Assembly (NCBI GenBank): GCA_000004985.1 | Contig: GG738867.1 | DNA: 64,000 bases | Reading direction: 5' to 3' (one strand) | Source: Naegleria gruberi | Lineage: Eukaryota | In this document: positions 15,604 to 52,365 of the stretch, one piece after another | How the letters are laid out: the number at the start of each line of letters is the position of its first letter | How positions within the stretch are numbered: position 1 is the first letter of the stretch | The notes under the pieces: generated by a model | Told to the model about the DNA's origin: nothing | Database searches by the model: none | Seen by the model: the letters and a program-made list of their open reading frames with translations, nothing else | Position numbers and translations under genes: made by a program

Positions 15604-15694
15604 TTTTTTCCTGATTATGAACTTTAAACTTTGCAAAACATTAGGAACTTAATAGCATTTGAAACATCAATTTAGAAAATTCAGTTACAAAAAA

Positions 15695-20874: not shown

Positions 20875-22075
20875 TACGATTATTACAAAATCAATAGTTT
20901 CTAGCTCGGTATCTCAAATTGCTCTGTTCCACCTAGGTTCAACAAGTTTACTATATAATCTATATAATCGTGTGCACCTTTCATTTTGCTACCAATCCAA
21001 AGATGGATGCAGGCAATCAAAGCAGACTATTCCACCATTCTTTGAAAACAGCAAAATTCAAAATCTAAAGAATCTTCCTTAATTAATAAATACAATAAAT
21101 TATTAAAACAAGATGTTGTATAGCTTCTACACTTTGAAAGAAGAAGATCCAATAAGTAAGAATTGTTATATTGTTCTTAAAGAAGGCGTATTAACATTGC
21201 TACTGGTTCAACCTTGCTAAAACCACAATATATTAATATTTTCCAAGGCACTTCCGAGTTTACTAATACATCACTCATATCCAGTTATTTCCAAACAGTT
21301 CTTGTCCAGGGATTTTACGTTGTTATTGATCGTCACTGTGAAACACGTAATTGCTGATTGCGATCTGCCCTTTTCTACCCGTTTTCTTGCTTGCGAAAGA
21401 GTTTGAGAAAACAATTTTTGAACTCTGAAAGCACTTCAGAGCAATACTTAATAGAAATATTCAAAATACGATAACTAATTGTAATGAGAGTTTCAGAAAT
21501 TGAAAATCCGAAACAATACAAAGATAAAGAAGAATAACTCACTTTCTGAATCAAATCAAGTGCCAAGCTTGATATCCAAAATAATCCATTTTGTTAAGTT
21601 TGACCTTCTTGGCAAAGATCAATAAACCAGCTACTACCTCCAAGCATGATTACAAGAACTCTACACTAATAATAGCTTATAATCATCTACAGTTGTTCTT
21701 CCATCTCAGATACTTGGTTCTAAAACAACATGACATGAAATTCTCATCAACTACAGTCTGTCATCTTTGTAATCAATAGCAACAGTTCATTTTATCTTCC
21801 ACGTTTAGAACCACCATGCCATTTAACGAAAATACGAAACAGTTTTTTATTCCTTTCAGTAATGGCCTTATTTTGATTGTTATCCAAGCTTGATAGGTTG
21901 TTGCCAAAAACGCTTCGGTTATTAACATCCAAAATCTCACAGAACCTCCCAAATGGCAAAAGTTACCTCTACATGGATGTTTTCAACTTCACATTTTACC
22001 GTCAATCAAAGATATTTCACACTCGCTCATCCACTACGAGGTCACAAAAATTTATCAGAAAAAACAAAAACAAAT

Positions 22076-24474: not shown

Positions 24475-26133
24475 TCAATAGTAATCTTCATCTGGTTTCG
24501 CATATTTTCCTGCGAGGGTGATGATTTCTGGATCTTGTTTAAGCTCAGAATCCAACATTTTGAAAACACACCCATTCTCTTTCACAGCTATCAAAGCCAG
24601 TTCTCTATCGTTCTTCAATTCTTTAGGAATATTGCTAAATACATGTCCACAATTCGAGAGAGCAATCTTTACAATTTCTAGATCTGCTTTGAATCCATCT
24701 GGAATTCTTGGGTATGCATATCCATATTTTGAGAGTAATTTCATGATAGATTCACGGTCATTTAAGAATAGATCTGCCAAATCACAACGGGTAATCAAAT
24801 AGCCATGTTCAACAGCAATCTCTTTCAATTTTTGTTTAAAATTCTCAGATTCTGAATAGTCCTCTCTGTAATAACCCATCATTGAAATAGGATTCTTCAA
24901 AATAGCCCTCAACCACAGTTCTTCATCTTTAGCCAAGCTTTCGAAATAACCATGCACCAAAATCAATGGATTAATATCAATTAATTCCTTAATGAATTCC
25001 CGGTCAGATTCAATAGAATTTGTATCTATGTTTTGAATATTTGTTGGATTACTTTCGATTAACATTTTGATAATGTCCCTATCAGCAGACAAGGAGCTAT
25101 GGATACAGCGAGCTAAATCAGAGCCAATTTGGAATGCTTCCATAAAAACTTTCTTTGAACTTGTAAGTTTTTCATTAAGAGAGCTGAAGAATGATCCAAA
25201 AGATTCACATCTTGGTGTCTCTGTTGAAAATAAACTGGATTTGAGTAGATTATTATAGGCTTTAGGACCTCCATTCATAATACATTTGAACACATCGAGG
25301 TAAATAGATGAAAACTCGTTTCTTTCAAATGCTTTTTCCAATCGAGGTAAGATAACTCGTGTATCAAAATTCTTTTGTCCATGTTCTTGTGTGATAAATT
25401 CCACAATCTCAAATACCATCTCTTTTTCAAACTCATTTCTTCCTATACATAATTCGTCTGATATTTCTAACAACCTATCAGCATCTTGTTCATCATCACA
25501 ATTACTCAACAAATCGGTCGATCCAAATATTAAATCAATTCTTTTTGATTTTCTATCAAATCTTTCAACACTAACTTCAGGTCTATTGCACTTTCTCTGA
25601 TGATTTGGTTTTTTGAAGAAATCATCTAATTTCTTCATCATTCCCAAATATTGATAAATAATTTGCAATATAATTCCATCGGTCACTTCAATTTTAATTT
25701 GGGATAATCTTTCTCTCAACACACAATTCATCACAACACAATAGGAATCATTGGTGCCACCATCACATGCCTGATAAATATTATCTCTGGTCGGTAAGAG
25801 CATCGTTAGAGGCGATTGCAATCCTTGATAATAGCAGCTGCTTTCTAAATTCATTGGTGCTAGTGATGACAAGGATTTTAATATACAGACAAATTGTTGA
25901 TTTCTCATTCGGAGAGCAATTATTCTCTCGTATTGTTGTTGCTGATTGGCAATCATAACATGATTTGGAAGCTTTTTAATTATTCTAAAATCTTCTTGGT
26001 TGTTGGAGGTGGAATTTAAGAGTTTGATGATTGATCGCTTTGATTGTTCCATTTTTTTTAATTGTTTACAATAATTACATCTTGATTTAAGATTGTGTAA
26101 TATATTGCATTTTCCTATTAAATTATATTTCAT
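24475..26133 (-). CDS. hypothetical protein with C-terminal DUF4116-like repeats
   Basis: ATG ORF of 552 aa.
The C-terminus 'ADLEIVKIALSNCGHVFSNIPKELKNDRELALIAVKENGCVFKMLDSELKQDPEII' repeats the same module as the gene at 13960-15603. Confidence 0.5.
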   Translation of the reverse strand: MKYNLIGKCNILHNLKSRCNYCKQLKKMEQSKRSIIKLLNSTSNNQEDFRIIKKLPNHVMIANQQQQYERIIALRMRNQQFVCILKSLSSLAPMNLESSCYYQGLQSPLTMLLPTRDNIYQACDGGTNDSYCVVMNCVLRERLSQIKIEVTDGIILQIIYQYLGMMKKLDDFFKKPNHQRKCNRPEVSVERFDRKSKRIDLIFGSTDLLSNCDDEQDADRLLEISDELCIGRNEFEKEMVFEIVEFITQEHGQKNFDTRVILPRLEKAFERNEFSSIYLDVFKCIMNGGPKAYNNLLKSSLFSTETPRCESFGSFFSSLNEKLTSSKKVFMEAFQIGSDLARCIHSSLSADRDIIKMLIESNPTNIQNIDTNSIESDREFIKELIDINPLILVHGYFESLAKDEELWLRAILKNPISMMGYYREDYSESENFKQKLKEIAVEHGYLITRCDLADLFLNDRESIMKLLSKYGYAYPRIPDGFKADLEIVKIALSNCGHVFSNIPKELKNDRELALIAVKENGCVFKMLDSELKQDPEIITLAGKYAKPDEDYY

Positions 26134-27524: not shown

Positions 27525-30500
27525 TCAAGCCAATAATGGATCCACTGGTAGGCAAAATTTAAACATATCCTTATTTTTGTATTTCTTCAATCTAACTTTG
27601 ATATTAATCACCTTATTCAATTCTTGTTTTGGTGATTTGAGTAGTTTTTCATTTTCATAGGTTTCAATACCTTCAAGCCAGTCACGTAATTTAGGTGAGA
27701 ATATGCTTAACTCCATCAGATCAGTAATCTTATCCCAATCAAGATTAGAGTCGAGAGCAACAGCACCAATCAATGCCTCCATCACATCTGAAATAGATTT
27801 GGCTTTAAGTTTCAGATCTTTCTTTACAAACAACAGTTGATCAATTCTAAAGTCTTTGGCTATCTTTTCCAATGCTGTATTTCTTACAAAATTGGAACGG
27901 AACGTGTGCATTTCACTCTGGTCCAGATAAAAATTATGGAACATTGTTCGAGAAACATATAAATCCAAGACAGCATCGCCAACGAATTCCAGAGTTTCAT
28001 AATTCACATTAAAACCAATATCAACAGAGGGGTGAATTAATGTGTAGTATGCATATAGAATATTTTTGAATTTGTATCCAATAATTCGTTCCAATTCTTT
28101 AGCATTTTTCTCAATGTCTGGTATTGTGTTTTCAATGATACGCTTGACATATTCTGGATTTGAATTCAATATAAATTTGTCAGCAATAAAATTCTGCTTT
28201 TTGACCAGTTTCAAATCTCTAGCCAATTTTACACCTTCTTCAATACTGTGTTTACCAACGAGACCAATTAAACTTTCAATTATATCAGCACGTACTTTTT
28301 TGCCTTTCACAGAAGCTTCCTGTTCGCTTTTAGAGAAAGCAATACCAGCCACATTGTGATGATAGTACTGAGTTTCGATAAAGAAGTCCATAATAGATAA
28401 TTTTTGGGCCAACTTCCTCAAATTGGAGTTTGAAACTTTGGCAGTCTTTTCCTCATTATAAAATTTCATATTCTCGAATGGAAATCTCAGAACTATATCC
28501 AAAACAACAGCATATTTCAATATAGTATCACCAAAAAATTCGTATCTTTCATAGTTAGTATCCAGATTCTGACTAGTTCTGTGCGTTATTGCATTTCTTA
28601 ACTCTGACAAGTTAATATAACCACAACTTGGAAACATTTGATTTTTCAAATCGTGGGCTACAAGGGTCTGCTCTACTAAACTCATCAATGTTCCTTCATT
28701 GGACGTCTTAAATACTGCTCTTAGGGATTCGATAAAATCTATCCTTAAACTAGTTGGTTTGCAGAATTCTGGTATCAACATGACATATCTGTGGTACTTG
28801 AGAGAATATGCAGATAACATTGGTTGATTTGAATCACACATAATTTCATATCTATCCTTCAAATAGCTTTGGTAAGTTATAGTAGATCCTTGTTTCTCAA
28901 AAGATTCTAAGGGTGTAGAACTCTCATCAATATAATTTGGAGCATAAAAATCCTTATTATATGTGGTTACAATAAAATAATCGATCGGTACCCTCACTCC
29001 TAATCTCAAATGATCTAATATAGTCATTGACTGGGGATAATCTTTCTCACTCTGGGATAACTCTTTTTCGAATGTATATATCACATTCCAATCTATGACA
29101 TCCCTTGGTTGGTTTCCTCTACAAGAAGGAAGTACCAAGTAGAATCTTCCATCTCCATAAAAATAATCTTTAAGAGCATAATTATTGTAAATAATTCTAC
29201 ATAATCTCATGTAAAATGCAATCAATTTTTCATATTCAGACTTGGTTACTGTTATGAATCCACAAGGGAAAAGTTTCAGCCATAAAGGATGCATAGTCAC
29301 TTCAAACGGATATTGAATCTCTCCAAAAGTCAAAAGAGCAGTCATTTCTTCCTTTCCGTTGCTATTGATTATCATTTGACTAACAAATAATTTGACATTA
29401 TTGTTGTCTTTAGGCCCCTCATATCTAATTGGCTTTGGAATGTATGTATCTTTCTTCTCTATCTCTTCGTCATCTGAAAGATTCTCTATTGAAGAAATGA
29501 GTGGTTCAATATCCTCTTGTGTATCATTTGTAATAATAACCTTCTCAGATTTAATATATTCTTTTAGCTCCTCCAAGGCAGTATCTACAATGATGCTTCG
29601 CTCATTGTTACCCATATTGGTTAACATGATGATTTGGGAATAATCATCCTTATCATAAAGTACTACATATCTTGAAAGTTCGTGCCTCGCTCTACCCATA
29701 GACTGGATATGTTCTCTAGTTGTGTTGCAAATATCAAATTGAACCACTAAAGAGCATTTGGAAATGTTCAGACCCTCTTCTCCGGCTTTTGTAGCTACGA
29801 GAAGTCGAGTAGTGTGTGAAAATTCCTTCACTACAGTTGCTTGAGCTTGTCGAGACATAACTGAACTTCCTATCAACTCTTTACAATTTAGAGGTATAAA
29901 CTTTCTATACATTCTAAACATTTTTACAATTGCCTTTACATGAACAATTCGCTCAGCAAATATGATACATCTCATATTTTCGTTTGTATTTTCATATGTA
30001 TCGACTAAATCAAATAGAATTTTGACCTTATCTGAAATGAAAGGTGAAGAATTAATTTCATTCATACTTGAAAACTCAATTGGTTGATTCAAGTTAAAAA
30101 TTGGATAAAATGATTTGAAAGACTCAAAAACATCCAACTCACATATTAGTGAAATAATTATAAGACTTCCAATCAAACCTAATTCACGATAATTCTTCTC
30201 TATATCATCAACTGATATATCTCTAAAATTATGATATGAATGAAACGTTTTCAATGCATTCAATGGCTCTATCAACTCACTCTTAGATGAATAAGCTACG
30301 CTATGTTGTCTCGGGTTGTTGACATGTTTTTTCATCTCTTCCATGTAATCATAAGGTACTTTGATGGAAGCATCAAGGCTAAATTCTAATTTGGCCTTTC
30401 TCAAAAATAAGGTATGTTCATTAAGACTTGTCTTGTAGAGAGATTGAGAAGCCGGTGTCGCAGTAAGACCTAAAATTTTAGGAAGCTCAATTGGTTGTCT

Positions 30501-31211
30501 ATCTTTAAGGAAATTGAAATTATATGCTAATAGTGAAGGATCAATAGGCTTGTTGTTGTGATAATAATCTCTCATCAATTTAACATAGGGATGATCCTTA
30601 GTAGCATGGTGAGCCTCATCAAAAACCAATAACAAGATATCTTCAAAAGAAATTATTTGACTCTGAAGAGCATTCAACAATATTTGAGGAGTGCTCACAA
30701 TAACATTCCAAGATTTGCTCGAATCAATTGTAAAGTCCTTCTTAATTTTCATTTTGCTACATTCCCTTTTGTAGAAATATTTGAAAATAGCCTCCTGTTG
30801 TTGTTTCCTCAATGCAGTCGTTGGAACCAAGAAGAATATCTTCTTTGTTAGTTTCTTCTTATCAGGTGGTCCATTAGTTGGTGGTTTCTTCTGATCAGAA
30901 ATGCAACATGAACACTTTGAGGATAAAAAGTATTCATCTCCCATATATTCCTTTTTATCATTTTGATGTAATAATTGATCAATTAAAAGACAGGCTAGAA
31001 GTGTTTTTCCTGTACCTGTTGGTAGAATACAAATTGAGTTTCCATCGATTGATTCCCGAAGCAATTCCAATTGATAGGCTCTCGGTTTTTCAATGGTAAT
31101 AATTGTATTATTATTCGAATCATTAGTATTATCACCTGTTTGTGTCGACAGTGATGGTTGAGAAAGCATCGTTTTACTTGTTGAACAATTTTTAGGCTTT
31201 GAATAATGCAA
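27525..31211 (-). CDS. Dicer-like endoribonuclease (DExH helicase plus two RNase III domains)
   Basis: 1228-aa ATG ORF.
Walker A 'ILPTGTGKT'.
'VFDEAHHA' (DEAH).
Helicase C 'ATKAGEEGLNI'.
RNase III signatures 'ERYEFFGDTILKYAVV' and 'ETLEFVGDAVLDLYVS'. Confidence 0.8.
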   Translation of the reverse strand: MHYSKPKNCSTSKTMLSQPSLSTQTGDNTNDSNNNTIITIEKPRAYQLELLRESIDGNSICILPTGTGKTLLACLLIDQLLHQNDKKEYMGDEYFLSSKCSCCISDQKKPPTNGPPDKKKLTKKIFFLVPTTALRKQQQEAIFKYFYKRECSKMKIKKDFTIDSSKSWNVIVSTPQILLNALQSQIISFEDILLLVFDEAHHATKDHPYVKLMRDYYHNNKPIDPSLLAYNFNFLKDRQPIELPKILGLTATPASQSLYKTSLNEHTLFLRKAKLEFSLDASIKVPYDYMEEMKKHVNNPRQHSVAYSSKSELIEPLNALKTFHSYHNFRDISVDDIEKNYRELGLIGSLIIISLICELDVFESFKSFYPIFNLNQPIEFSSMNEINSSPFISDKVKILFDLVDTYENTNENMRCIIFAERIVHVKAIVKMFRMYRKFIPLNCKELIGSSVMSRQAQATVVKEFSHTTRLLVATKAGEEGLNISKCSLVVQFDICNTTREHIQSMGRARHELSRYVVLYDKDDYSQIIMLTNMGNNERSIIVDTALEELKEYIKSEKVIITNDTQEDIEPLISSIENLSDDEEIEKKDTYIPKPIRYEGPKDNNNVKLFVSQMIINSNGKEEMTALLTFGEIQYPFEVTMHPLWLKLFPCGFITVTKSEYEKLIAFYMRLCRIIYNNYALKDYFYGDGRFYLVLPSCRGNQPRDVIDWNVIYTFEKELSQSEKDYPQSMTILDHLRLGVRVPIDYFIVTTYNKDFYAPNYIDESSTPLESFEKQGSTITYQSYLKDRYEIMCDSNQPMLSAYSLKYHRYVMLIPEFCKPTSLRIDFIESLRAVFKTSNEGTLMSLVEQTLVAHDLKNQMFPSCGYINLSELRNAITHRTSQNLDTNYERYEFFGDTILKYAVVLDIVLRFPFENMKFYNEEKTAKVSNSNLRKLAQKLSIMDFFIETQYYHHNVAGIAFSKSEQEASVKGKKVRADIIESLIGLVGKHSIEEGVKLARDLKLVKKQNFIADKFILNSNPEYVKRIIENTIPDIEKNAKELERIIGYKFKNILYAYYTLIHPSVDIGFNVNYETLEFVGDAVLDLYVSRTMFHNFYLDQSEMHTFRSNFVRNTALEKIAKDFRIDQLLFVKKDLKLKAKSISDVMEALIGAVALDSNLDWDKITDLMELSIFSPKLRDWLEGIETYENEKLLKSPKQELNKVINIKVRLKKYKNKDMFKFCLPVDPLLA

Positions 31212-39590: not shown

Positions 39591-41326
39591 TTAAATACAA
39601 TTTGTACAGGAGGAAATAAAACCCTTATCTGGTTGGTATCTACAAAGTGTACATCTAGCTCTTCTGTTAATATCCAAAGTGCCAACATCCATGACATTAT
39701 GTACAACAAGAAACTGCAAATCGTCAATGATTTGTCTGGTCTTTTTGATCATGGTATGGTCTTTTGAAATCATGTAAGAGAACAAGTCTTTTGGGAGTGG
39801 ATACTCCGGGTGCTCCCTTTTAGATTTTTCCACAGCCTTTTTTAGAGACATGTATTGCAAAAATCCAATGTCTGAACTGGAGCCACTCGATGCCTTGATA
39901 TTCTTAACTATTGGCACCATTTCCTTGAATAATCTTTCAATGTCCAAAAGTCTAGAAATTGGAACGCTTGGGTATGTTTGCTGATTTTCAGAATTAATGA
40001 GACAAGTAGCAAATCCACAATATGGTGATGGTCGAATATTGTAATTTCCCTTTCCAAGAACTGATAGGAATGGTTCCAAAATCATTCCCACACTGGCAGG
40101 GAAAAAGTCATCCAATTTAATTTGTCCCTTAGTATCTTCCTCAATTAATTTTAGCAACTCCAAAGGATCCACATTGAAAGACTCGTCAACTTCATTAAAA
40201 GGTACAGCACATCTAATAAACATGAGTAAATCAGATGATTATCAAAACTTACTTTTTAAATTGTTTCATGATTTGGTTTGGTGTTCTCTCAGCCTCGATA
40301 ATAATAAATCTACAAAATCCCTTCATTGGAAAACGAAGTAAATTCAAAATTGAATCCAACTTTGGGAATGGTCGACTGACAACAATTCTGACAATTATTG
40401 TCAAATTGGTAATTTGTTTCAATATCAAAAACGCATTGTTCAACTCTAAAGCAGTTTGCTTTTCAATTCCTTTTTGAAGGAATATTTGTACAGATGGGTG
40501 AATACGAGGATTCAACAAGCAGGTATCGTCCAGCTTTGAAAGTTGAACAACTCTATCAAATGATAACTCTAAAACTATTGGATTATCCTTTGGTACATTG
40601 GCAAGAATCAAATTCACCTTCCTATTCAAAGTGACCATATCTTCCACTAATTTTCCATTCACTCTAATTATTACCTGTAATTTTAATTTATCAATTAATG
40701 AACATTTAATTATAAATATATTATTAATAATTAATAATCATAATTAAACATACATTCTTATCTTTTGGTATTAATTTCATAGTTTCCTTGATGGAATGCA
40801 AAATATGTTGGTCAGGAATAAATTGTTCCTCCGAATAAACATCCAAATCAACCATGAGTGGTGTGTTCTCTATTATTGTTCCATCATTATGAATCTGTTT
40901 TTCCAACTCTTCAATATCTGGATTGAAATTAGGTTTTGATTCTAGAATATCGGGAGAGTAATCCAACGTCTTCATGAAGAAATCAAAACTAGAACTAATT
41001 TTAATTTCCTGATTGCCATGTTCTTGACACTTAATTACTAGCCAAATATCATCCTTCCTCTTTACTATGTGACCTTCTTTCCAATGTTCCTTTTCCAATC
41101 CCTTTCCATCTTCAACAAACGAACAAATTGGGCAAATTGTTTGAGTTAGAAATAATATATTAATATCGGCCTCTGTTGATGATGATGATGGAGGTACCAA
41201 GAGGAGTGATGGTGAATTCACCAACCCACTATTACCACTCGATGATGAGGTGGCAGGAGAGGAGGGTGCCGATTGAGACCCTTTCGATGACTTGGAAGAT
41301 TTTTTGAAAGGGCTCCAAGAGAACAT
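39591..41326 (-). CDS. hypothetical protein; 3 exons (40754-41326, 40253-40674, 39591-40212) joined by introns of 79 nt (GTATGT…TTACAG) and 40 nt (GTAAGT…TTATTAG)
   Basis: Three consecutive minus-strand ORFs join in frame across canonical splice sites ('…LIPKDKN|VIIRVNGKLVEDM…', '…NQIMKQFK|K|CAVPFNEVDESFNVD…').
The N-terminus is Ser-rich.
Cys-containing motifs 'ICPICSFVEDGKG', 'PSPYCGFATCLI' and C-terminal 'RARCTLCRYQPDKGFISSCTNCI'.
I do not recognise the family. Confidence 0.5.
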
Positions 41327-42173
41327 TTTTTCAATTTGTGTTTTCTTGCTATGATGATAATCAACGTGATGAGGCGTAGCAAGAAGATATCGTTTTTATT
41401 AATCGGGTTGAAATTTTGGATGAGATTGAAGTAATATTAATGATGATCTATACAATGAAACATTCAGAATTGAATTGTTGTTTTGTATTGTTATGAAGTA
41501 GTAGTTTGGAGATTTTGCAACTCCTCAATATTCTCCAAAGATCTAAATGAGACCCACGCTTCTCTCCTTATAATATCTTGGCAACAATACTGTAATAATC
41601 AATCTCTCTCGCACTGAGAGTGATTTATTACAGTAGTTAAAAAGGATTTATTTGTTATTGCAAATCTTTTCAAAGATTTAAGGTATTTTAATCGAATGCA
41701 ACTCAAAAATCTTTGTATTAATCTTTCGATATTTCTCATTCCATCACCTTCCTAGTTGACTGATAAGATCTTATTAATAGTGATGGAAGGGAGGATTTGA
41801 ATTTCTCTCGGTTATTGGTGTGTTTCTCGAAAAAGGTTCCTTCCAAAAAACCCTGGCCGGAGTTTCATCCCCGGACGCTTTGCTTTTCTTCACAAAACGG
41901 TGAACAGAGAATTTGCCTCCAAAAGCATAGGAGAAAAAATACACGCAACACCACAACCCCTCTCTGTTCTTCTCGTTCAACAACCGCTCCTCTCTTTTTC
42001 CTCTGAGAACATACGTTGTGGCTGAAAGCCGTTCAAAAACATTAACAATCCATACAAAACATCAAATCTTTTAACAAGAGCGTTACGAGGTAGCAACCAT
42101 CTTCATCAAACGTGAAAAACTTCCCAACAACAAGAACAATAGTTTTTTTTATTTATTACTTCATCATATAAAA

Positions 42174-43322
42174 ATGTCTTCAATCCACCTTACAAGATTG
42201 AATCCACCACCATCCACAGCTTCAGATATTCTATTCTTGGGCTTTAATCAAGACAATAGCTGCATGGCAGCAGGTGTATCCAACGGTTTTCGTATATATA
42301 ATTGCGATCCATACAAGGAAACCTTCAAGAGAGAATTTTCTGGTTCTATCGGTATGGTAGAAATGCTTTTCCGTTGCAATATTCTTGCCATTGTAGGTGG
42401 AGGCACTGAACCAGCTTTTAATAAGAACAAGGTTATTCTCTGGGATGATAATCAATCTGCTCCTATTGGAGAATTAACATTTAAATCAGAAGTGAAAGCA
42501 GTCAAATTACGAAGAGACAAGATTGTTGTCGTCCTCGATAAGTATGTCTACGTATACAACTTTGATAAGTTGGAGAGAATTAGAAAGTTTGAAACTTACA
42601 AGAATCCAAAAGGTCTTGTGGCCTTGAGTCCTTCTGATGATTGTGTGTTAGCCTTCCCAAATACTACCAAGGGTACTGTTCGTGTTGAATTACTCGATCA
42701 AGATAACTCTATCATTATCCCAGCCCACGATGGTGTCATTAACTGTATAGCATTAAATTCCGATGGTACGAGACTTGCTACTGCCTCAGAAAAGGGTACA
42801 TTGATCCGTATCTTTGACACTAAGAAGGGAACCAAATTACAAGAAGTGAGACGTGGTGCTGATAAGGCTGATATTTATTCTATTTCATTCTCTCCAGACT
42901 CTCTATTCTTCTGTGCTTCCAGTGACAAGGGAACTATTCACATTTTTGCCAATAATACTGGAACAGGTGCCAACTACCAAGTCAATCCATCTAACATTAA
43001 CAATAATAACCAACCAACACAACAAAATTCTATCCAACAACAACCTACCACCAGTACACCAACAGGCTCATCCCCAGACCAAATTACAAATCGTAAATCG
43101 AAAATGTCATTCTTTGGAGGATATTTTGGGTCCGAATGGTCTCATTCTTGGTACAAAGGTCCTGAGTGTCCTTCTATAGTTTGTTTTGGCCTTGATAGCC
43201 GTTCTATCATTGTTTTCACTGCTGAAGGTTCATATATCAAGTTAGTTTTTGATCCAAAGAAGGGAGGAGAATGTCAAAGAAAATCTTTTGCTCGGTATGC
43301 CAAGCCAAACAAGAATCACTAA
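42174..43322 (+). CDS. WD-repeat PROPPIN (WIPI/Atg18 family) with Q/N/T-rich insert
   Basis: ATG ORF of 382 aa.
'GSIGMVEMLFRCNILAIVGGG'.
'TLIRIFDTKKGTKLQEVRRGADKADIYSISFSPD' carries the (L/F)RRG phosphoinositide-binding motif.
'DKGTIHIF'. Confidence 0.75.
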   Translation: MSSIHLTRLNPPPSTASDILFLGFNQDNSCMAAGVSNGFRIYNCDPYKETFKREFSGSIGMVEMLFRCNILAIVGGGTEPAFNKNKVILWDDNQSAPIGELTFKSEVKAVKLRRDKIVVVLDKYVYVYNFDKLERIRKFETYKNPKGLVALSPSDDCVLAFPNTTKGTVRVELLDQDNSIIIPAHDGVINCIALNSDGTRLATASEKGTLIRIFDTKKGTKLQEVRRGADKADIYSISFSPDSLFFCASSDKGTIHIFANNTGTGANYQVNPSNINNNNQPTQQNSIQQQPTTSTPTGSSPDQITNRKSKMSFFGGYFGSEWSHSWYKGPECPSIVCFGLDSRSIIVFTAEGSYIKLVFDPKKGGECQRKSFARYAKPNKNH

Positions 43323-43468
43323 GTTACTGCTGGGGGGTTCCCCACTCGATCGAATAAACCACTTTCGATTCTTTTGTACAAATTAATTTATGTATTGAAC
43401 AAGTTTTAAGTAAGCCAATAACAACTTTTCCCAATTCCAATAACCTTGTGAAATATTTCAATAATATA

Positions 43469-46400
43469 TTACTTGAAATATTTAAGAGATAGCAACTGGG
43501 ATGCTGATGGCCTTTGATTTGCATCTTTTTCTAACATTTTCAAAACTATCTCTATCAATTCCTCAGAATATTCACTCTGACTAGATTCCTTCATTTGATT
43601 GGTCAATATTTTTGTTGCATTCTCTGATTGATTTCCCATTAGCATGTTACTAATCGAAGTTGCTTGATCATTGGTCATGATTTGATATATTGAAACACCC
43701 AAAGAGAAAATATCTGTATTGAATGAATACGAACTACCAAGTGCAACTTCAGGACTCATAACTATTAATCGGTTAAATTTGTGAATAAAAACAACTACTT
43801 ACAAAGTGGAGTTCCAACATAGGATTGACCAGTCATTTCTTGATACTTTTTAGCCAATCCAAAGTCTGCTAATACAATGTCAATATTCTCACTTGATAAT
43901 TTCTTGATAAAAATGTTAGTTGGCTTAATATCTCTGTGGATAATGTGCATTTCTTCGTGAACGAATCTCAAAGCTGTCAGCATTTGCTTCAAAATTTGTT
44001 TGATAATCTTTTCACTGCAAATTTCTTGTTTCAATTTTGTTAAATCTCCTGATTCATAATAATCTGTGTCAATAATCAATAAATTATCATTGGTAATGAA
44101 ATAGTCATTAACTTTGATAATATTTGGATGATTAATATTACTCAATTGAGATGCCTCTTTCATAATTGTATTCAAATCTGTAAGGTTTTCAAATTTAACA
44201 ATCTTGATCGCCTTCAACTTGTTTGTCTTTGAATCTGTCACTTTGTAAACACTTCCAAACGCTCCTTGTCCAATTCTTATAATATTTGAATATCTGGAAA
44301 ATGGATTTGCAATATTTGATCCAACAGAAGAGTTAGCAGATGAGGAAATAATCATTGAGCTCATAGAAAGGAAATTTGTATCAGAAAGTTCAACATTTCT
44401 TGCTTCTAATTGAGCTATTTCAACATCTTTCTTCTTTTTCTTTGAGAAACACATAATAATTACAATGACCACTATGAAAATAGCAATTAAAATCAGCAAG
44501 ACTGCAACTATAGGTATCACAATAGCTACTGCCAATACTGTAGAATCAATTGATTGTTGACTTTTCTGAATTTCACAAAATTGTCCTTCAAATCCATTAT
44601 TACATTGACAAGTGTCAAAATCAGAACATTGTCCATTTCCATTGCAAACATTTTCACTAGTTGCCACTGTTCCATTGCAACTCAATTTGGCATCACATGT
44701 ATTATTCCAAGAATTATAAGTAAAATTCTCTCCACAATAGGGAATAACCTTGCGAATATAAGCTCTACCATCAATAAGAAAGATTTCACCTGTACTTTCA
44801 TCATATTCGACTTGTTTTGAGAAGAGTGTAAACATTGAATAAATTCCAAATCCATCTCCATTAAATTTTGCTGATTCAGCTCTGGAACCAGCAATATCCA
44901 CCAACAAACCACTTTGTTTCTGATACATTCGAACAAGATACGTACTAGAACCATCCAAAATAATGATATCCCCATTCCTTTTCACATAGATAGCAGATGG
45001 TTTATCAATAGATGATGACAATGCAGGTAATCTATCCCCTGAATATCCAGTAACAAAGTTTCCAACCAAAGTTCTCAAATAATAAGTGCCTTCTGATAAT
45101 TTTTCAATTCTTCTAATGGCATTATCTGTTAAAATATAAATAAATCCATTATTATGGTGAATATTGCCAATTGCACCAGGATTTGTTTGATTGCTAATTA
45201 TTCCATCATTGATGGAAATATCCAACATGTTAGAGAATGCAAATTCGAGTGAAATAATTTGAGTTTTCATGTTGTATCTATAAATGGAGAAGAATAAGGA
45301 AATGAGCAGATCGCCATTTGTATCATCTATTGTCATTCCAGAGATTATTAATGGACAAGGAGAATCTATACCCTTAACACCAGTCTTGAATTGAGCACCA
45401 AAAGAATTTCCAATAATTCTTTCAAAATTCATAGTTTCTGGATCTATTCGAACAATTCTACATTCGTCCTTAATGTATATCTTTCTATCAAACTTTGAGA
45501 ATGTAGCATATGCCCTTACCATATTCGGCACTATATTCAATGTTAAATAGGGTGTATCCACTGGAGTAGATGTGGATAAATACATGGACGTACTGAGAGA
45601 GGAGGACTTTCCAGTTGTTTCATCATATTTCTTCAATGTCCTAGTATCAATATAGTAGCATACCTTCTTCACAGGATCTCTCATTAGAATGAGTGGATTT
45701 ATTGTTCTAGAGACTGGGTTTAGTCCAGCAATTGTGGAAATTCGCCCACTAGAAATTTCACTAAGGTGAAACATATTTTTCACAAGAATACTTGAATTGT
45801 ATCTGGTAGCAATTGGGGTATTCCTATTAAGGGGTTGAAATTAGTAGTCAATTGACCAATATTGAGAATGGTATTATTACTTACAGAGCTGAGTTTTCGA
45901 ATGGAATATTCTCACCATTATATCCAAGAACATGTTGTGGTGAAAATAATCCAATCCACCAATTTTCTGCAAAGTAAGTGTTTCCAATTGAAAATTATAA
46001 AGTTGACCAACTGTCCAAAAAAATAAATTTCTGTCATTTCTTGAAAATCCTTCAAAGGTCAAAATACTTGGCATTTTCCAATTAAAAACTTTCATTGAAA
46101 CAGTTTCATTCTGAAAGTCAACATATTCATACAGCATATTCTCTACATCTGAATATAAAAATAGAGAATTTGAATTGGGATATCTTAAATTGGGAATAAC
46201 ATTAAATTGTCCAACCGCTCCTGGCACCAAATTAATTTGTAATTTTTTCACAATTCCACCTTTTTGTAAAACTAGAATTGAATTTTGAAAATCTCTGAAG
46301 TAAATTGTAGAATTTTCAAAGGAATCACCAACTGCAGCCAATCCCTGACTTATTGGATAATTCTTAGAGTTTAGAATGAATGTCAAATTTTGAGTTTCCA

Positions 46401-47249
46401 AATTGAAATTGTAAAGTGAAAAATCTTGACCAAAATTGTAAAGTAAAACATCACCATTTCCAATATAAAACAAATTGGTAATTTCAAAGAAAGTTCGTTG
46501 TGGAATGTTGGCACTGTACTTGGGTGCAGTTTCTTGTTGACAGCCCAATACTGTTTTCAACTTTCCATTCGAAACCTTTCGTAAGTAATATTGACTTTCA
46601 ACAAAGTACAACTCATTCTTATAGTAGAATGGGAAAGTAAGAGATGCTGCTGAATACATTTGGAGAGGAGAAATATTTTCACCTTTTGAGTGAATAATTA
46701 TGCCACCTGATAATGTGGAAACCATTTTGGTTTGCAGATCAATCTTTCGAATACATCTATTCGATTTATCTGCCACTATTATTGTATTTTGGGTGACAAT
46801 TAAAGAAGATGGTTCATAAAATTTGATATTGGGAGAATCGTATAATTGATTATCACCACCATATCCTTCTGACCCTCCAATAAGTATTTTGGTTTCGTCT
46901 GAATTCAGCAATTTCATTGTACGAAATTATTACTTTGAGATGAAGTGTAAATTTCACCTCCACTAGAAACATAGACACCATATCTTTCGAATAGTTATCA
47001 ATTGAATCAATCAATTATTCACTTACAAATTAGATTGAGCCACTCCTCCATCCACAATTCTATACTTTCCATTTTCGTCAATTGACTTGACTCTTTCTGC
47101 ATCTGTGAAATAGACAATATCCTTATTACATATCCAGCATAAACTTCCACCACCGACAAGTTGTTAAAAATCCTAAACACCAAATGTCTTTCAGCATTTG
47201 CAACAAAGACATCTCCATCCAACCAACACATTCCAGTCGGGGACAACAT
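43469..47249 (-). CDS. receptor-like Ser/Thr kinase: NHL-type beta-propeller repeats, EGF-like module, transmembrane helix, NEK-like kinase domain; multi-exon (at least 4 exons, internal boundaries approximate)
   Basis: Kinase exon 43803-45779 has 'HRDIKPTNIFI' and 'DFGLAKK'.
It is spliced over a 41-nt GTAAGT…TTAATAG intron (43762-43802) to the last exon 43469-43761 ('GTPLF|MSPEVALG', subdomain VIII-XI).
Upstream: a TM segment 'LAVAIVIPIVAVLLILIAIFIVVIVIIMCF' and an EGF-like 'CNGNGQCSDFDTCQCNNGFEGQFC'.
NHL-like repeats continue in ORFs 45877-46917 and 47019-47249 across short introns (GTAAT/GTAAGT sites at about 45876 and 47018).
The 5' end is unresolved. Confidence 0.6.
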
Positions 47250-47405
47250 GTACGCATACTTTGCCTCAACTAGTTCAAAATTAGTGTTGAAGCACTTTCC
47301 TGACCAATCCTTTGAACAAATGTATTGTAAATTTTTTAATTCAATATATATATGGATATATTAACATGGTGGGAAAAGTAGTTTTCTGGAATTTATTTCA
47401 ATAAT

Positions 47406-48413
47406 TTAAAAATCTTCATCAGTTGAAGGAGACAAATACAAATTTTGTAATTCTTCTAATTCCCTTTCGTTGATAGACAATTTATATGAAGAAGGTGAAT
47501 TTGAATTTGTTTGAAATGTGATTCTTGGATTCTGTTGAAGAAATAAAGAAGTTGGAATTGTAGAGATAAAGGAAGAGAACTTGATAACATGTAGCATTGT
47601 ACTGACCATTTCCAATTTGAAAGTTTGAGGGAGAACATTGAAAGATAAGTAAATACTATTTGAACAACTCAATTGACTAATCAAATTGAAGAATTGTTGC
47701 TGAGTCATTTTGGAATCAAGTTTTAAAAACAAACATCTGATGAGTTTTTCTGCCTGCTCGTTAGTTGTGTACTTTTCACTCAATGAAGAATCGATCAAGG
47801 AAATTATTCTTTCTGGATTTGTGGCAGTTGTTTGATTTTCAATGAATTTTGAAAGCCATAATTGATGCAGAGGAATTGCCCTTTCTTGATCAGTGATTAG
47901 CTTATCTATACAAATCAAAACTAATTGGGCAATGTAATTATCCATGTGGTTTTCTGGATTTTTCTCCCCGAACTTTCTTAATGTGTGAATTGCAACTGGA
48001 AATGAATTCTGACATTGTAAAGTCCACAATTGTTTCAAATGTTCAAAGTGAGATTTCATTCCAAGCTTGGAATACATATCGTACATTGATGAAAATTCAT
48101 CGGTTTCAATTGTAATGGAGGTGTAAATGGATTTGATAGCTTTTTCACAATGCATGGCTTCAAATTCGGTTGAGCAAATTAGTTTTAGGATGTGTTGATT
48201 ATCTTGTTGTTCAAAAAGACCTCTCAGAACTTCACTTGAATTTGCAATGAAACATCTGTGAGCTTTGATTTCCATAAAACATTCATTCTTGGTATTGATT
48301 AGCTTGTTTACAATAATCTTGATTTGCAAATCGGGAAATGAATTTGGATTATCATACATACAACCTCCTTTGATAGGAAGAGTGAAGAATACTGTATTGT
48401 TATTCTTTTTCAT
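47406..48413 (-). CDS. BTB/POZ-domain protein
   Basis: ATG ORF of 335 aa.
'DLQIKIIVNKLINTKNECFMEIKAHRCFIANSSEVLRGLF…EFEAMHCEKAIKSIYTSITI' matches the BTB core (f.aHr.vLaa.S.yF). Confidence 0.55.
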   Translation of the reverse strand: MKKNNNTVFFTLPIKGGCMYDNPNSFPDLQIKIIVNKLINTKNECFMEIKAHRCFIANSSEVLRGLFEQQDNQHILKLICSTEFEAMHCEKAIKSIYTSITIETDEFSSMYDMYSKLGMKSHFEHLKQLWTLQCQNSFPVAIHTLRKFGEKNPENHMDNYIAQLVLICIDKLITDQERAIPLHQLWLSKFIENQTTATNPERIISLIDSSLSEKYTTNEQAEKLIRCLFLKLDSKMTQQQFFNLISQLSCSNSIYLSFNVLPQTFKLEMVSTMLHVIKFSSFISTIPTSLFLQQNPRITFQTNSNSPSSYKLSINERELEELQNLYLSPSTDEDF

Positions 48414-48662: not shown

Positions 48663-51600
48663 TTATTGTTGTGGACATTGTGGTCCTTTGTTCTGATTCA
48701 TTAAGGCAGCGTTCATCATGAGCATTCTTTGTAGTTCTTCTTGATCTGGATGGAATTCATCAGAGTCATAATCGTCAAAGTCATCATCATCATCATCATA
48801 ATAATCACCACCTCTATAATCATCCTCATCATCCTCCTCATCATCATCATCATCGTCATGTACTGTTGTAGGTAATTGTTGAGAATAGATAGAACGTTGT
48901 TGATATGTTCCCTCACGTCTGGCAGGTTGGTGTCGAATGCTTCTAACAAAACTTTCATCGTCACCAACAACTTCCTCTTCCTTATCACTTTCTTCCTCTC
49001 CAAATAGGACAGCTTGGTGGTCCACTTGTGCGATTTGTTTGATTCTTGGAATAACTCTATTATTATCTTTAAATCTCTCCATTTGTGAACCAAATTTTCT
49101 AGTATTCTTAACTTTGTCTTTTGTAACAACATACATATTCCTAAAGTCAATAACTCTTCCTTCCTTATCATCAGGTAATGGAAATTCTGCATCTTTAGTA
49201 TCTCTTGTCTTTAAGAAAGCACGATATTTCTTTTCAAATAGTTTTGACATCTCTTTTGAATAAGTGGTTTGTCCTTCTCTCCAAATATACGTATTCTTTG
49301 ATTTTTTAAGTCTGGTTCCAGAAATGTATGCATCTTGGAAGAAATTTCTAGTGTGAGGGAAAAAGCTTCCTACGTTTTGAGTACCAGGACTGGCTGTAAT
49401 AAATTTCAGTTTGTTAGATTGTTGTTTGACCTTTTTCTTATTTCCAGATGATTTTGAATCTGGATCCACTATGACCTTAATATCGTTAAGGGCTGTTTTT
49501 ATAAAAGGAGGGTTACTACTATAGTGTCTTATGCCATATAACTTGTTTGAAATCTTTCTACAGACATCTCTCGGAGTACTATAGTCAGCTAATCCGGCTG
49601 TGAAATCCACATAAGGGGCAGAAGGACGAATAAGTTTTCTTTGGGTTTGTTCTAAAGTATTACCTCCTCCAACAGACCACCACATTGAATTCTTTCTAGT
49701 ACAATTTTTAATTCCATTTCTAATTAGTAATATTCTTGCTAGACCAGTGACTTGCTGAATATTCAATTTCTTTTTTCTACCAGTAACGCCCCACCAATCA
49801 CTGTTTTGTTTCAATGAATCAGAATCTGTCAAAAGTTTGTTACATATTTTCTTTTCTGAAAAACCAGGAACACCAATTCTAAAGCCTCTCAATCTTTAAG
49901 AAAATTAATCCTCATTCTAATAAATAAATACTTACGCATATTTTACAAGTCTAGTCTCGAATCTAATTAAGGTATTGATTAGATATCATGAAAAACAAAC
50001 TTACGTTGTAGATTGACGATCTGGATCAACAATATTACACCTTGTAGAGAATGCTTTAATGGCCCTTGGTAAAGCATAAACTTGATGTCCATCATATGCA
50101 ACACAACAACTTGCAACATCAAATCCCATTAGTATTTCTGACATACTCTTGTAAATTCTTAAAATAATTTGTACTTTTCTAAAATTAGGATGGAAAGTAA
50201 AAGTGATTGCATTATCTGTTCTTATGATTGCAATGTCATTTAGCTCAGTCTTTCTGTTGTATGTTTTTTTCAAAAAACTAGAATCTGGAATACTGCTGAC
50301 TTGTTTTTTTAAGTGTTCATAAATGTAAATTATCTTATCTATTGCCCTTTTTTCGTCAATATCATAAAGGAAGATGTCAATATCACTCTTAACAAAATTT
50401 TTCTTGTAGTAAGAATATAAATTTTTTTCTGGACTATCTTCTTCCTTCTTCCTGGACTCCTTAAATGCTACGAGTTTGGAAAATTCTTCGTCTCCAGAAG
50501 ATGTAAAGTAATCACTATTTTCAAGAGTTTCTACTTCATCATTGGATTCATCATCTTCAGTCCAATATGGCTTATCATTTGGATCACTGTATGTATTTTC
50601 CTCAATTTCAAAGTTTTTCTTCTCGGCTTGAGGTTTCTCTTGTTGATCAGCAAGTAATAAGCAGTTTAACACTGAACCTCCAGCGCATGCAATATTTGAC
50701 CAATCGAGGTCTTTCAATAAAAAACATGAAAAAGCATCGAATTGATTTTGGAAAGTTTCTTTTGAATTGCAAATAACTGGGATTGGTGGTTTTTTGATTT
50801 GTTCACGTTTACACAATTCTGCAGCCTCTTTTTCATTTTCAAAGTCGAAAAGAGGGTAAATAGAGGATGGTAGCTCTGTTTTCTTGCACAAATCGGAAGA
50901 TTCATCATTAAATAATTCTATCAAGTGTAGTTTTGGATCTTGTAAAATTGGATTATTTCTTTCTAATAAAGAGTTATACATATCTCTCAAAAAGTCTTCA
51001 TTTTTCTTAATGTTGAGATTAGTTTCACCTAGCAATTCGAAAGGAAACCTAAGTGGATCGAGATGTTCAAGCAAAAATTTAACATTCAATTCTTTTGCCA
51101 AGTTATAAAGTTGCTTTCTTGGTGCTACTTCTTTTGGAATATTAGCTGTAAAGTCATCAGAATTATAACACTCAACTAGTACTCTAAAGGTAGATGGGTC
51201 TCTATCAATGAATATCTCCTCATCGTTTCTTTTTTCTTTACAAAGAGTGGTTAATAAACTGTCACGATTAATAAGTTTTTCAAAACCAATTTCAAATAGT
51301 ACCCCTCTTACATTGAATTTTTTGAGTGGTTTTTCAACTTTCTCATCTAATTCCTTCAATTTATCTCTTAATTTGACTAGCTCAGTGTCTTTATCAGCAA
51401 CATATTTATCAAAAAGCTCCTTCTCTTCTTGTGTCAAATAGACAATATCTCTTGTTAGCAATTTAGATTCTTCTTCATCATGTTTTCTATTCTCATCTGA
51501 TTCATTCTTCTCTTGATTGGAATTTGATAATATTTTTCTATCCTTCTTGATTTTGAGTGCAATAATATTACTCAACTTTTGAGTTCCAAAAAAGTCCGAT

Positions 51601-52271
51601 TCTTCTAAAAGGTTTCGTAATTCTATCAAACTTTCTTCAGATGGGTATTCTTCAGGAATGCCGATATATTTTGTTGATCCTGATGAGAGAGTTAAATAAG
51701 GGTTCATAACAATTAACTTACCTGTTCTAATATGTTCTAAAATTATTGGGAAATAATGTGGGTTTCTATCAGCAATTACAATACATCCATTCTCATCTTT
51801 ATCAATTGGGAATTCAGAGTTGATCATAACTTTCAACATGTTTTCTCTTTGGTTCAGTGTTTTCTTGGTTGTTGTGTAAATACCTCCACCAATATTCAAC
51901 TTGATAATATTCTCAGCAGATGTATCATTCGTTGCACGTAATTCACTCAAAGTTGCAGTATCCGATTTGCTATACAAAGGAATACCAACAATACCTTCCT
52001 TGTTGAATTTATCTACCAAGCCTAAAATTTTAATTCGTTGCTCAAGTGAAGCCTTCTCCTTCTTCATACACATCAGAGGAGTGAAGGAAACTTGTTCAGT
52101 TCTTGGCTGATCACTCTTCAGAAGTGGAGTTGTTGGCGATTCTGTTGCCGATGATGAAGAACTCTCACTTGCCGGTGCTGAATTGGATGGCTTTGTGGAG
52201 GTTCGTTTGGCCAAATAAATCTTTCGTTGTGGGGGCATTTTTTTTATTACTGTCGGTTTTGCAGCCTTCAT
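48663..52271 (-). CDS. large protein with two KCTD-type BTB domains and a D/E-rich C-terminus; 3 exons including a 27-nt micro-exon (50005-52271, 49936-49962, 48663-49893)
   Basis: BTB-1 'IIKLNIGGGIYTTTKKTLNQ…CIVIADRNPHYFPIILEHIRTGKL'.
BTB-2 'VRGVLFEIGFEKLINRDSLLTTLC…IFIDRDPSTFRVLVECY'.
The 782-aa ORF ends 'ACA AC|GTAAGT'.
A 42-nt intron, micro-exon 'ATTCGAGACTAGACTTGTAAAATATGC' and a second 42-nt GTAAGT…TTAAAG intron join in frame to the 409-aa ORF (…DPDRQSTTFETRLVKYALRGFRIGVPG…).
ATG chosen at 52271 (MKAAKPTV…). Confidence 0.55.
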
Positions 52272-52365
52272 TCCAATCAAGGCTCGAACAAAAAAACCAA
52301 GCCTTTGATTCACACTACAAATAATTACAAATAATGAATACAACAACAAGAATATTGGTTTTTAA

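Follow-up and report, generated by a model that had tools for sequence, protein, structure and literature searches.

The receptor-like kinase gene copy described here lies on the minus strand of a 64,000-nt stretch of Naegleria gruberi DNA (contig GG738867.1 of assembly GCA_000004985.1, hereafter the window), and combines NHL, EGF, transmembrane (TM) and Ser/Thr kinase modules; the end of a BTB-domain gene, likewise on the minus strand, lies at 47406. Coordinates are positions in the window, and all parts described are on its minus strand. The copy begins with a remnant of its 5′ flank (47290..47349), homologous to the DNA upstream of the intact start codon in L005, a 2.9-kb metagenome contig, and ending at the junction of a ~240-nt deletion. 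The remnant of exon 1 (47027..47291) carries the first NHL-type blades and shows 96-98% nucleotide identity to L005:314-482 and L005:863-963. Intron 1 (46984..47026; 43 nt, GTAAGT..AAAG) is identical in L005, and its splicing restores ..QSNL/YGVYVSS.., collinear with the N. gruberi proteins P0004 and P0203. Exon 2 (45885..46983) encodes a middle propeller-like module and is intact both in L005 (98% identical) and in L001, a more distant paralogous contig (79%). Intron 2 (45824..45884; 61 nt, GTAAGT..AATAG) is a GT-AG intron, measures 63 nt in L005 and is also present in L001; in the intact copy its splicing yields ..ENSAL/NTPIATRY.. in phase.

Exon 3 (43803..45823) is open over all of its 673 codons, as seen by translation and Pfam, and contains the third beta-propeller, the EGF-like module, the TM helix, a juxtamembrane segment and the bulk of the kinase domain. 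Its sequence is 100% identical to L005 across 45823-45182. Intron 3 (43762..43802; 41 nt, GTAAGT..AATAG) splits GTPLF/MSPE at a position conserved in homologues: the ORF-called homologues P0001-P0004 read into the intron (..GTPLCK..), and P0005 and P0203 are spliced across it. Exon 4 (43469..43761) encodes the kinase C-lobe (MSPE..QRPSASQLL), is 66% identical to the C-terminus of P0005 and ends in a stop codon at 43471-43469. A sequence-only reading of this DNA had proposed that NHL repeats, an EGF module, one TM helix and a C-terminal Ser/Thr kinase belong to one gene, and motifs, Pfam matches and hydropathy agree on that architecture.

In the extracellular part, Pfam detects NHL repeats at 33 bits in the frame-repaired translation of the 5′ part of the window copy, and at 69.7 bits in the intact sister copy on L005. 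On the intact ectodomain, TEN_NHL scores 46 bits, and the matches to EGF_Teneurin and EGF_TEN are weak. The membrane-proximal module (44737..45753), missed by Pfam, is predicted to fold as a six-bladed NHL/teneurin-type beta-propeller. Its AlphaFold2 model (pTM 0.72, core pLDDT 75-96) retrieves teneurin-2, -3 and -4 as top Foldseek matches in the PDB (E 1e-12 to 1e-11, TMq 0.55-0.61), with SOQ1, Pizza6, NHLRC2, Brat-NHL and PknD (1rwl; E 2.4e-7, TMt 0.71) among its other matches. For the middle module, AlphaFold predicts an all-beta fold of ~24 strands in the intact homologue P0047 (pTM 0.64), and the propeller matches of this model are generic. The intact gene has three propeller-like modules, of which the first is canonical NHL, the second divergent and the third NHL/teneurin-like by fold. 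The Cys-rich EGF-like module (44575..44736; CNGNGQCSDFDTCQCNNGFEGQFC) has six cysteines that are invariant across the family alignment, and matches EGF_Teneurin (20.5 bits) and EGF_2 (20.6 bits) with E ~5e-4, slightly under the gathering scores. In the window, no more than 428 ectodomain codons, those of exon 3, share the frame of the TM helix and the kinase, which falls short of the extracellular region of at least 900 aa that had been proposed.

The single TM helix (44446..44538; VLAVAIVIPIVAVLLILIAIFIVVIVIIMCF, followed by KKKKK) reaches a 19-residue Kyte-Doolittle mean of up to 3.9. The reconstructed intact protein of 1410 aa, derived below, contains just two hydrophobic segments, this helix and a signal peptide, the latter missing from the window; both signal-peptide and topology assignments are based on hydropathy.

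The kinase domain (Pfam Pkinase, E=3e-58, residues 513-769 of the spliced product) displays the Gly-loop IGQGAFGSV (44274-44248), AIK (44217-44197), HRDIKPTN (43938-43915) and DFG (43869-43852). It had been described as NEK-like, and its P+1 motif MSPE does resemble the GTPYYMSPE of NEKs; the Ser/Thr-type HRDxKxxN loop is shared with both NEK and STE20 kinases. When the domain is compared with the PDB using phmmer, however, the STE20 kinases of the GCK-III type (STK25, 109 bits; MST3, 104 bits; MST4) lead the ranking, followed by CDPK (104 bits), MYLK4, SLK (99.7 bits), ULK3 and a PKR chain, with NEK2 (97.7 bits) and NEK1 (97 bits) after them, so that NEK is not the closest group. Since STE20, CAMK and NEK scores lie within ~12 bits of one another, these comparisons do not permit assignment to a kinase group. 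The 60 best PDB matches include no TKL kinase, and BMPR1B and a plant S-receptor kinase are reached only at E 1e-4 to 1e-5. The architecture also differs: NEKs and STE20s are soluble proteins with an N-terminal kinase, followed in NEKs by a C-terminal regulatory region, whereas the kinase of the window gene is a C-terminal domain behind a TM helix.

Comparison with L005 reveals what the window copy has lost. This contig is 98.3% identical to the window at the DNA level and carries an intact version of the gene, encoding P0050 (signal peptide and NHL repeats) and P0047. Joined to the 3′ part of the window copy, it gives an uninterrupted coding sequence of 1410 codons in four exons separated by three GT-AG introns, and hence an intact protein of ~1410 aa with a signal peptide, three propeller-like modules, the EGF module, the TM helix and the kinase. 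The ATG and the signal peptide, which is also seen in P0050, P0051 and P0203, are contained in L005:158-313, a segment deleted in the window. The 5′ flanks of the two copies can be aligned locally over L005:2-73 (score 61, versus 27 +/- 4.6 and a maximum of 46 in 300 shuffles), and L005:74-313 has no counterpart in the window. L005 may be allelic to the window copy: its 5′ flank is homologous, but the contig spans just 2.9 kb.

All length differences between the window and L005 are deletions in the window copy (~240, 2+1, 382, 1 and 13 nt, and a further 2 nt inside an intron). The ~240-nt deletion (junction ~47290) takes part of the 5′ flank/UTR, the ATG, the signal peptide and ~52 codons. Further into exon 1, two small deletions, of 2 nt near 47231 and of 1 nt near 47222, together leave the frame unchanged, and a 382-nt deletion (near 47127/47126) breaks the frame, removing 127 codons and one base and with them the strongest NHL repeats (two blades). 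Exon 2 suffers two more frame-breaking losses, of 1 nt (CAA[A]TG, near 46918) and of 13 nt (near 45944); L001 is intact at both sites. Three of the four main deletions (~240, 382, 1 and 13 nt) break the reading frame and the ~240-nt one costs the start codon, so the window holds neither the start codon and signal peptide of the family nor an uninterrupted coding sequence across the exons, and not the intact receptor gene that had been read there. The open 3′ part comprises only the last 770 codons, covering the third propeller, EGF module, TM helix and kinase.

These lesions also account for two of the apparent exon boundaries, as the ORF pieces 47249-47019 and 46917-45877, taken for exons in the sequence-only reading, owe their limits to the frameshifts caused by the 382-, 1- and 13-nt deletions. 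The 5′ end and the signal peptide, which were expected upstream of 47249, are not to be found there: the ORF meets a stop at ~47355 with no ATG before 47249, the BTB gene ends just beyond, and both missing features fall within the ~240-nt deletion. Several alternative readings were rejected. The peptide ICSKDWSGKCF above 47290, considered as the end of an EGF module, is read from DNA whose counterpart in L005 is non-coding 5′ flank. A 27-nt mini-intron (47129-47103) and other alternative splice sites rescue the frame only at the expense of homology or by admitting stop codons, and both the normal splicing of exon 1 to exon 2 in the frame of Met-47249 and a direct join of exon 1 to exon 3 run into stop codons. 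Nor can the deletions be unrecognized introns, as neither the ~240-nt nor the 382-nt segment is bounded by GT..AG, and the latter encodes conserved NHL blades found in N. gruberi proteins.

The gene belongs to a family that is real and whose members are already in public databases. Three N. gruberi proteins have the same module order of NHL propellers, EGF, TM helix and C-terminal Pkinase: XP_002672884.1 (NAEGRDRAFT_71976, 1380 aa), XP_002673404.1 (NAEGRDRAFT_71566, 1204 aa) and XP_002670872.1 (NAEGRDRAFT_74149, 1223 aa). Their identity to the window gene is 36-53% over the ectodomain or the whole protein, and the best annotated homologues of the 770-aa query (ectodomain and kinase) are N. gruberi proteins with 53% and 46% identity over 86-97% of its length. 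Searches with P0004 and P0005 using tblastn cover 47124-43472 of the window collinearly. Both the window copy and these relatives have a TM helix, a kinase with complete motifs and the intron in GTPL/F. XP_002672884.1 includes a signal-like N-terminal hydrophobic segment ahead of its NHL, EGF and Pkinase regions. All three are annotated merely as "predicted protein"; two of the three models begin at the position of ..VEVYAG in the window, and one reads into the last intron and therefore lacks the kinase C-lobe. Among the family members seen, disabling deletions occur in the window copy alone. The contig L004 (P0003) was rejected as a syntenic orthologue, both the PROPPIN and the BTB neighbors of the window gene being missing from it.

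The nearest relatives of the ectodomain that are not kinases are FDP41_010761 of N. fowleri and C9374_014632 and C9374_010972 of N. lovaniensis (E 1e-63 to 1e-80, 32-39% identity), annotated as "EGF-like domain-containing proteins". They consist of many NHL repeats followed by EGF modules, with more canonical NHL repeats and more EGF copies than the window gene, and Pfam finds no protein-kinase domain in their protein models. With a kinase in the three N. gruberi proteins and none in the models seen from these two species, the kinase fusion may be confined to the N. gruberi-like lineage. The literature searched on Naegleria NHL, receptor or transmembrane kinases contains no description of the family, which is most likely one of uncharacterized, Naegleria-restricted receptor kinases.

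The combination of domains is not without precedent, which, together with the N. gruberi proteins in GenBank, counts against the earlier statement that such kinases are not a described family. In Mycobacterium tuberculosis, the transmembrane Ser/Thr kinase PknD has been described as bearing an NHL propeller outside the cell (PMC1847690, PMC1262709). Like the window gene, it joins a kinase of the Hanks type, a single TM helix and an external NHL propeller, six-bladed in PknD (1rwl), but its topology is inverted, with the cytoplasmic kinase at the N-terminus and the sensor at the C-terminus. PknD is moreover bacterial, with a single, highly symmetric propeller and no EGF module, whereas the window gene is split by spliceosomal introns in a eukaryotic genome, and no specific sequence relationship was detected between the two kinase domains. 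Teneurins, the animal adhesion receptors, also combine NHL and EGF in their ectodomain. They are the best structural match to the membrane-proximal propeller (E 1e-12, TMq ~0.6), a domain-level likeness at ~16% identity, and the Pfam models TEN_NHL, EGF_Teneurin and EGF_TEN match members of the family. Unlike the window gene, however, teneurins have no kinase and possess eight EGF repeats, a YD shell, an FN-plug, a toxin-like C-terminus and type II orientation; no Pfam match at E<=0.1 to the YD-repeat shell, FN-plug or toxin-like C-terminus was obtained on the 1068-aa intact ectodomain. A signal peptide combined with a C-terminal cytoplasmic kinase implies type I orientation, opposite to that of teneurins.

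Taken together, the intact protein would be a type I receptor-like Ser/Thr kinase with a cleavable-looking signal peptide, expected to bind an extracellular ligand through its propellers and, upon binding, to oligomerize and trans-activate its cytoplasmic kinase. The window copy, with its ~240-, 382-, 1- and 13-nt deletions, would be unable to make this ~1410-aa protein. We consider it probable that this copy is disabled, most likely a recently pseudogenized allele or strain variant of a four-exon Naegleria receptor-kinase gene. That the loss is recent is supported by the excess of synonymous over non-synonymous substitutions between the window and L005 (~13-15 versus 4-6).

The distribution of the lesions complicates this interpretation. 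All six indel events fall within the 5′ 1.35 kb, with none in the 2.3-kb 3′ part (P ~0.003 under uniform placement), a clustering unexpected for simple neutral decay that leaves room for an assembly fault, a complex single mutation or selection on the 3′ part. We regard as unlikely the possibility that the organism has an intact gene and that the deletions arose locally in assembly or consensus calling, for instance through collapse or mis-polishing between 98%-identical haplotypes or paralogues. The lesions are indeed packed together and every one is a deletion; the intact 98%-identical sequence of L005 was found in the same sample as L003, a contig sharing 1504 nt with the window at 100% identity; and exact look-ups of the lesion-specific window ORFs (346, 662 and 76 aa) and of the BTB protein gave no match, so that no independent contig with the deletions was found. 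A homology search with lesion peptides also returned zero candidates, but it missed even P0050, 21 residues of which are identical to the query, and is therefore uninformative. Against such errors, base quality elsewhere is high: the neighboring PROPPIN coding sequence is identical in the window and two independent contigs, and the differences from L002 (98.3% identical to the window) are all intergenic save two substitutions in exon 4, with indels running in both directions. Tens of kilobases of the window carry long intact ORFs (many of 550-1240 aa), and where other ORFs are split, canonical introns connect the pieces. Given these observations and the L003 identity, the lesions are not general assembly noise, and the ~240- and 382-nt deletions, clean and with short microhomology at their junctions, are unlike usual base-calling errors.

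Selection might alternatively preserve the 3′ two-thirds of the locus, which would still yield a shortened protein of ~754 aa from an internal Met at 45774 (MFHLSEISS..), comprising one propeller, EGF, TM helix and kinase. Consistent with this proposal, which we hold to be quite improbable, the 3′ part keeps 770 open codons, two undamaged introns and the full set of kinase motifs, no lesion occurs 3′ of 45944 as opposed to six in the 5′ third, and the 3′ stretches that were compared differ from the sister copy by few substitutions, the four in exon 3 being all synonymous. Such a protein would have no signal peptide, however, and the translocation of ~410 residues of propeller and disulfide-rich EGF module would depend on the internal TM helix that follows them, an uncommon situation in membrane-protein topogenesis; the intact 3′ part may, besides, just mirror how recent the loss is. 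That the kinase part forms a gene apart from the NHL exons, driven by a promoter of its own between 45783 and 45877, the case named beforehand as fatal to a single gene, is very hard to credit, because in spite of the ATG at 45774 and of upstream exons that are out of frame in the window, 45884-45824 is a conserved GTAAGT..TAG intron, kept in L005 and L001 and joined in phase in the intact copy, and the N. gruberi models P0004, P0005 and P0203 are collinear across it.

Recent pseudogenization of an allele or strain variant remains our preferred account of the window copy, and the locus should be annotated as a disrupted gene rather than as a novel intact receptor, its seeming exon boundaries being frameshifts. 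For the family as a whole, a more ambitious and doubtful proposal would be that it constitutes an undescribed, functional system of Naegleria-lineage type I receptor Ser/Thr kinases, sensing an external ligand through three tandem teneurin/PknD-like propellers, born by fusion of a Naegleria NHL-EGF surface protein with a kinase and present in some haplotypes but lost from others; the deleted haplotype may keep a selected, N-terminally truncated product with one propeller, EGF, TM helix and kinase. The family offers a case of convergent domain shuffling with the bacterial PknD. Free-living and pathogenic Naegleria need to sense bacteria, surfaces and each other and, to our knowledge, their surface receptors are almost unknown. 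By uniting teneurin/PknD-type propellers with a cytoplasmic kinase, this family puts forward a concrete candidate for Naegleria sensing.

The best annotated homologues of the receptor-kinase gene (43469-47400, minus strand) are Naegleria gruberi proteins, and its proposed layout as an intact NHL-EGF-transmembrane kinase describes the 3′ part correctly but breaks down in the 5′ part, where a homologue-following translation switches frame three times. Two reading frames, 45823-43803 (minus strand) and 43761-43469, form 770 codons across a 41-nt GT-AG intron (43802-43762). This 3′ part bears out most of the sequence-only reading: it encodes a protein-kinase domain (Pfam, E=3e-58) with Gly-loop, AIK, HRDIKPTN, DFG, MSPE and C-lobe Asp and Arg all present, weak EGF matches (Pfam), and a single transmembrane helix of 31 hydrophobic residues (44538-44446, minus strand) followed by KKKKK. 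The assignment of the kinase as NEK-like is unsupportable, as STE20/GCK-III, CDPK, SLK, ULK3, NEK2/1/7 and PAK all score within ~12 bits of one another; MSPE is the only motif leaning towards NEK. Neither an in-frame ATG nor a hydrophobic N-terminus was found in the upstream part of the window copy.

Searching with the frame-repaired translation of that upstream part matched a pair of ORFs, both on L005, a metagenome contig of 2880 nt that shares 98.3% DNA identity with the window. One product (P0050) has a signal-peptide-like N-terminus, MVYPSNTSPYLYTWLLLHLLVGFFVLCCCLNSNVGA.., leading into NHL repeats, and the other (P0047) covers the middle region of the protein. Together with the 3′ part of the window, the L005 exons make up an uninterrupted CDS of 4233 nt (1410 codons); its three introns, 43, 63 and 41 nt long, are all GT-AG. 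Its product contains only two hydrophobic segments, at residues ~10-38 and ~1063-1104, the latter corresponding to the 31-residue helix.

Relative to L005, the lesions of the window copy are solely deletions. One of ~240 nt costs the gene its ATG, its signal peptide and 52 codons along with some of the 5′ flank; it is followed by deletions of 2 nt and 1 nt that in sum keep the frame, one of 382 nt (127 codons plus one base), one of 1 nt, one of 13 nt and one of 2 nt within intron 2. The deleted segments are not introns, having no GT..AG at their bounds, and a more distant paralogous contig (79% identical) is likewise undamaged at the 1-nt and 13-nt sites. The protein's strongest NHL repeats are encoded in the 382-nt segment, the Pfam NHL score being 69.7 bits on the intact ectodomain versus 33 bits on the repaired 5′ part of the window. 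The loss of ATG and signal peptide, plus three frameshifts, means that the window copy is unable to make the receptor. Its remaining 5′ flank (47349-47290) is still homologous to L005:2-73 (local score 61 versus 27 ± 4.6 for shuffles). A candidate end of the EGF module in this flank (..ICSKDWSGKCF.., 47292-47330, minus strand) was rejected as a chance reading of non-coding DNA, because the homologous L005 sequence is untranslated.

The window gene is probably a genuinely disabled allele. Substitutions between window and L005, counted as favouring real lesions, are mostly synonymous (~13-15 versus 4-6 non-synonymous), and the gene was therefore constrained during most of their divergence. Local misassembly, which would make the deletions artefactual, is an unlikely explanation. 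It has in its favour that all six indel events fall within the first 1.35 kb (47291-45944), leaving the other 2.3 kb free of indels (45943-43469; P ~0.003 under uniform placement), and that exact look-ups of lesion-specific window ORFs found no independent contig carrying the deletions. The clustering could also stem from selection on the 3′ part or from one complex mutational event. Against misassembly, one contig (L003) is 100% identical to the window over 1504 nt, and another (L002, 98.3%) differs only in intergenic DNA, apart from two substitutions in exon 4, the last kinase exon; its indels run in both directions and the neighbouring PROPPIN coding sequence is identical, a pattern resembling natural variation that has passed through selection rather than noise. 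Other ORFs in the window, over tens of kilobases, are also undamaged, and canonical introns join those that are split. Weighing the evidence for real lesions against the clustering and the lack of a deletion-bearing contig gave these likelihoods, and a truncated product starting at Met 45774 and still under selection was considered more improbable still.

Both versions of 41319-43752, that of L003 and that of L002, occur in run ERR1078381, pointing to a pair of haplotypes or of close strains. Residue-for-residue matches to the PROPPIN protein (42174-43322) came only from this run, in metagenome and Logan contigs that carry no annotation. Upstream of the receptor gene, on the same strand, lie two BTB/POZ genes (47406-48413 and 50001-52349, minus strand), the nearer stopping ~55 nt before the retained flank at 47349. 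The window is AT-rich (GC ~34%) and crowded with long eukaryotic ORFs, its genes being split by very short GTAAGT..TAG introns. Besides RhoGAP and ABC transporter ORFs, it encodes an IQGAP-like protein near the window edge (45-3635, plus strand) with four filamin/ABP280 repeats, RasGAP and RasGAP_C; a 603-aa ORF with a full-length animal haem peroxidase domain (21953-23764, plus strand; E=4e-111); a 1228-aa Dicer-like ORF (27525-31211, minus strand) with DEAD/ResIII helicase, Helicase_C, PAZ and two RNase III domains; and two ~555-aa ORFs (13960-15636 and 24475-26133, both minus strand) whose repeated DUF4116 domains mark them as paralogues, ~9 kb apart.

Pfam recognises a canonical NHL propeller in the N-terminal third of the intact protein, with both NHL and TEN_NHL above their gathering scores. 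The middle third, encoded by exon 2, has no Pfam match and is modelled with moderate confidence (pTM 0.64) as all-beta, with ~24 strands and generic propeller matches. The membrane-proximal third, encoded undamaged in the window, gives a good model (pTM 0.72, core pLDDT 75-96) and best matches teneurin NHL propellers in the PDB (E ~1e-12, TMq ~0.6), followed by SOQ1, Pizza6, NHLRC2, Brat and the PknD sensor 1rwl. Behind it follow an EGF-like module with six cysteines, the transmembrane helix, a ~50-residue juxtamembrane segment and lastly the kinase. The predicted topology and kinase competence are supported at sequence level by the signal peptide, by the single helix, whose C-terminal side carries clustered basic residues, and by the full set of catalytic motifs. 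Intact members would thus be type I receptors, with propellers and EGF module facing outward to bind a putative external ligand; by analogy with other single-pass receptor kinases, oligomerisation may bring the cytoplasmic kinases together for trans-phosphorylation.

The claim that such kinases are not a described family proved too strong. Mycobacterium tuberculosis PknD is a bacterial transmembrane Ser/Thr kinase with an NHL ectodomain (PMC1847690, PMC1262709), although its domain order is opposite to that of the Naegleria family, for which we found no description in the literature searched. Members of the Naegleria family are themselves already deposited in public protein databases, under the name "predicted protein", and the locus therefore adds a further, broken member to a kind already known.

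The full architecture recurs in three N. gruberi proteins (XP_002673404.1, XP_002670872.1 and XP_002672884.1), whose public models look imperfect. The first ends in ..GTPLCKFLHNWSI, its model therefore running into the conserved last intron and missing the kinase C-lobe; the first two lack a signal peptide, beginning at the position that corresponds to ..VEVYAG; and the third has part of the transmembrane helix apparently spliced out (..IVSIVIPILGKSKEINE..). ORF fragments of several more paralogues (36-73% identity) turn up in another Logan assembly and in ENA metagenome assemblies (at least two from the run of the window haplotype itself). Among 1.84 billion cluster representatives searched with the ectodomain, P0002 and P0055 were the few aligning in one stretch over most of the query, and two short fragments (P0083, P0094) aligned to its N-terminal part only. 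The other ~15,000 matches are multi-repeat NHL proteins, matching chiefly blades 4-6 of the third propeller; the nearest are NHL-EGF proteins of N. lovaniensis and N. fowleri that gave no kinase match in Pfam. On a simple reading of these sequences, a Naegleria NHL-EGF surface protein may have gained a kinase tail in the N. gruberi-like lineage.
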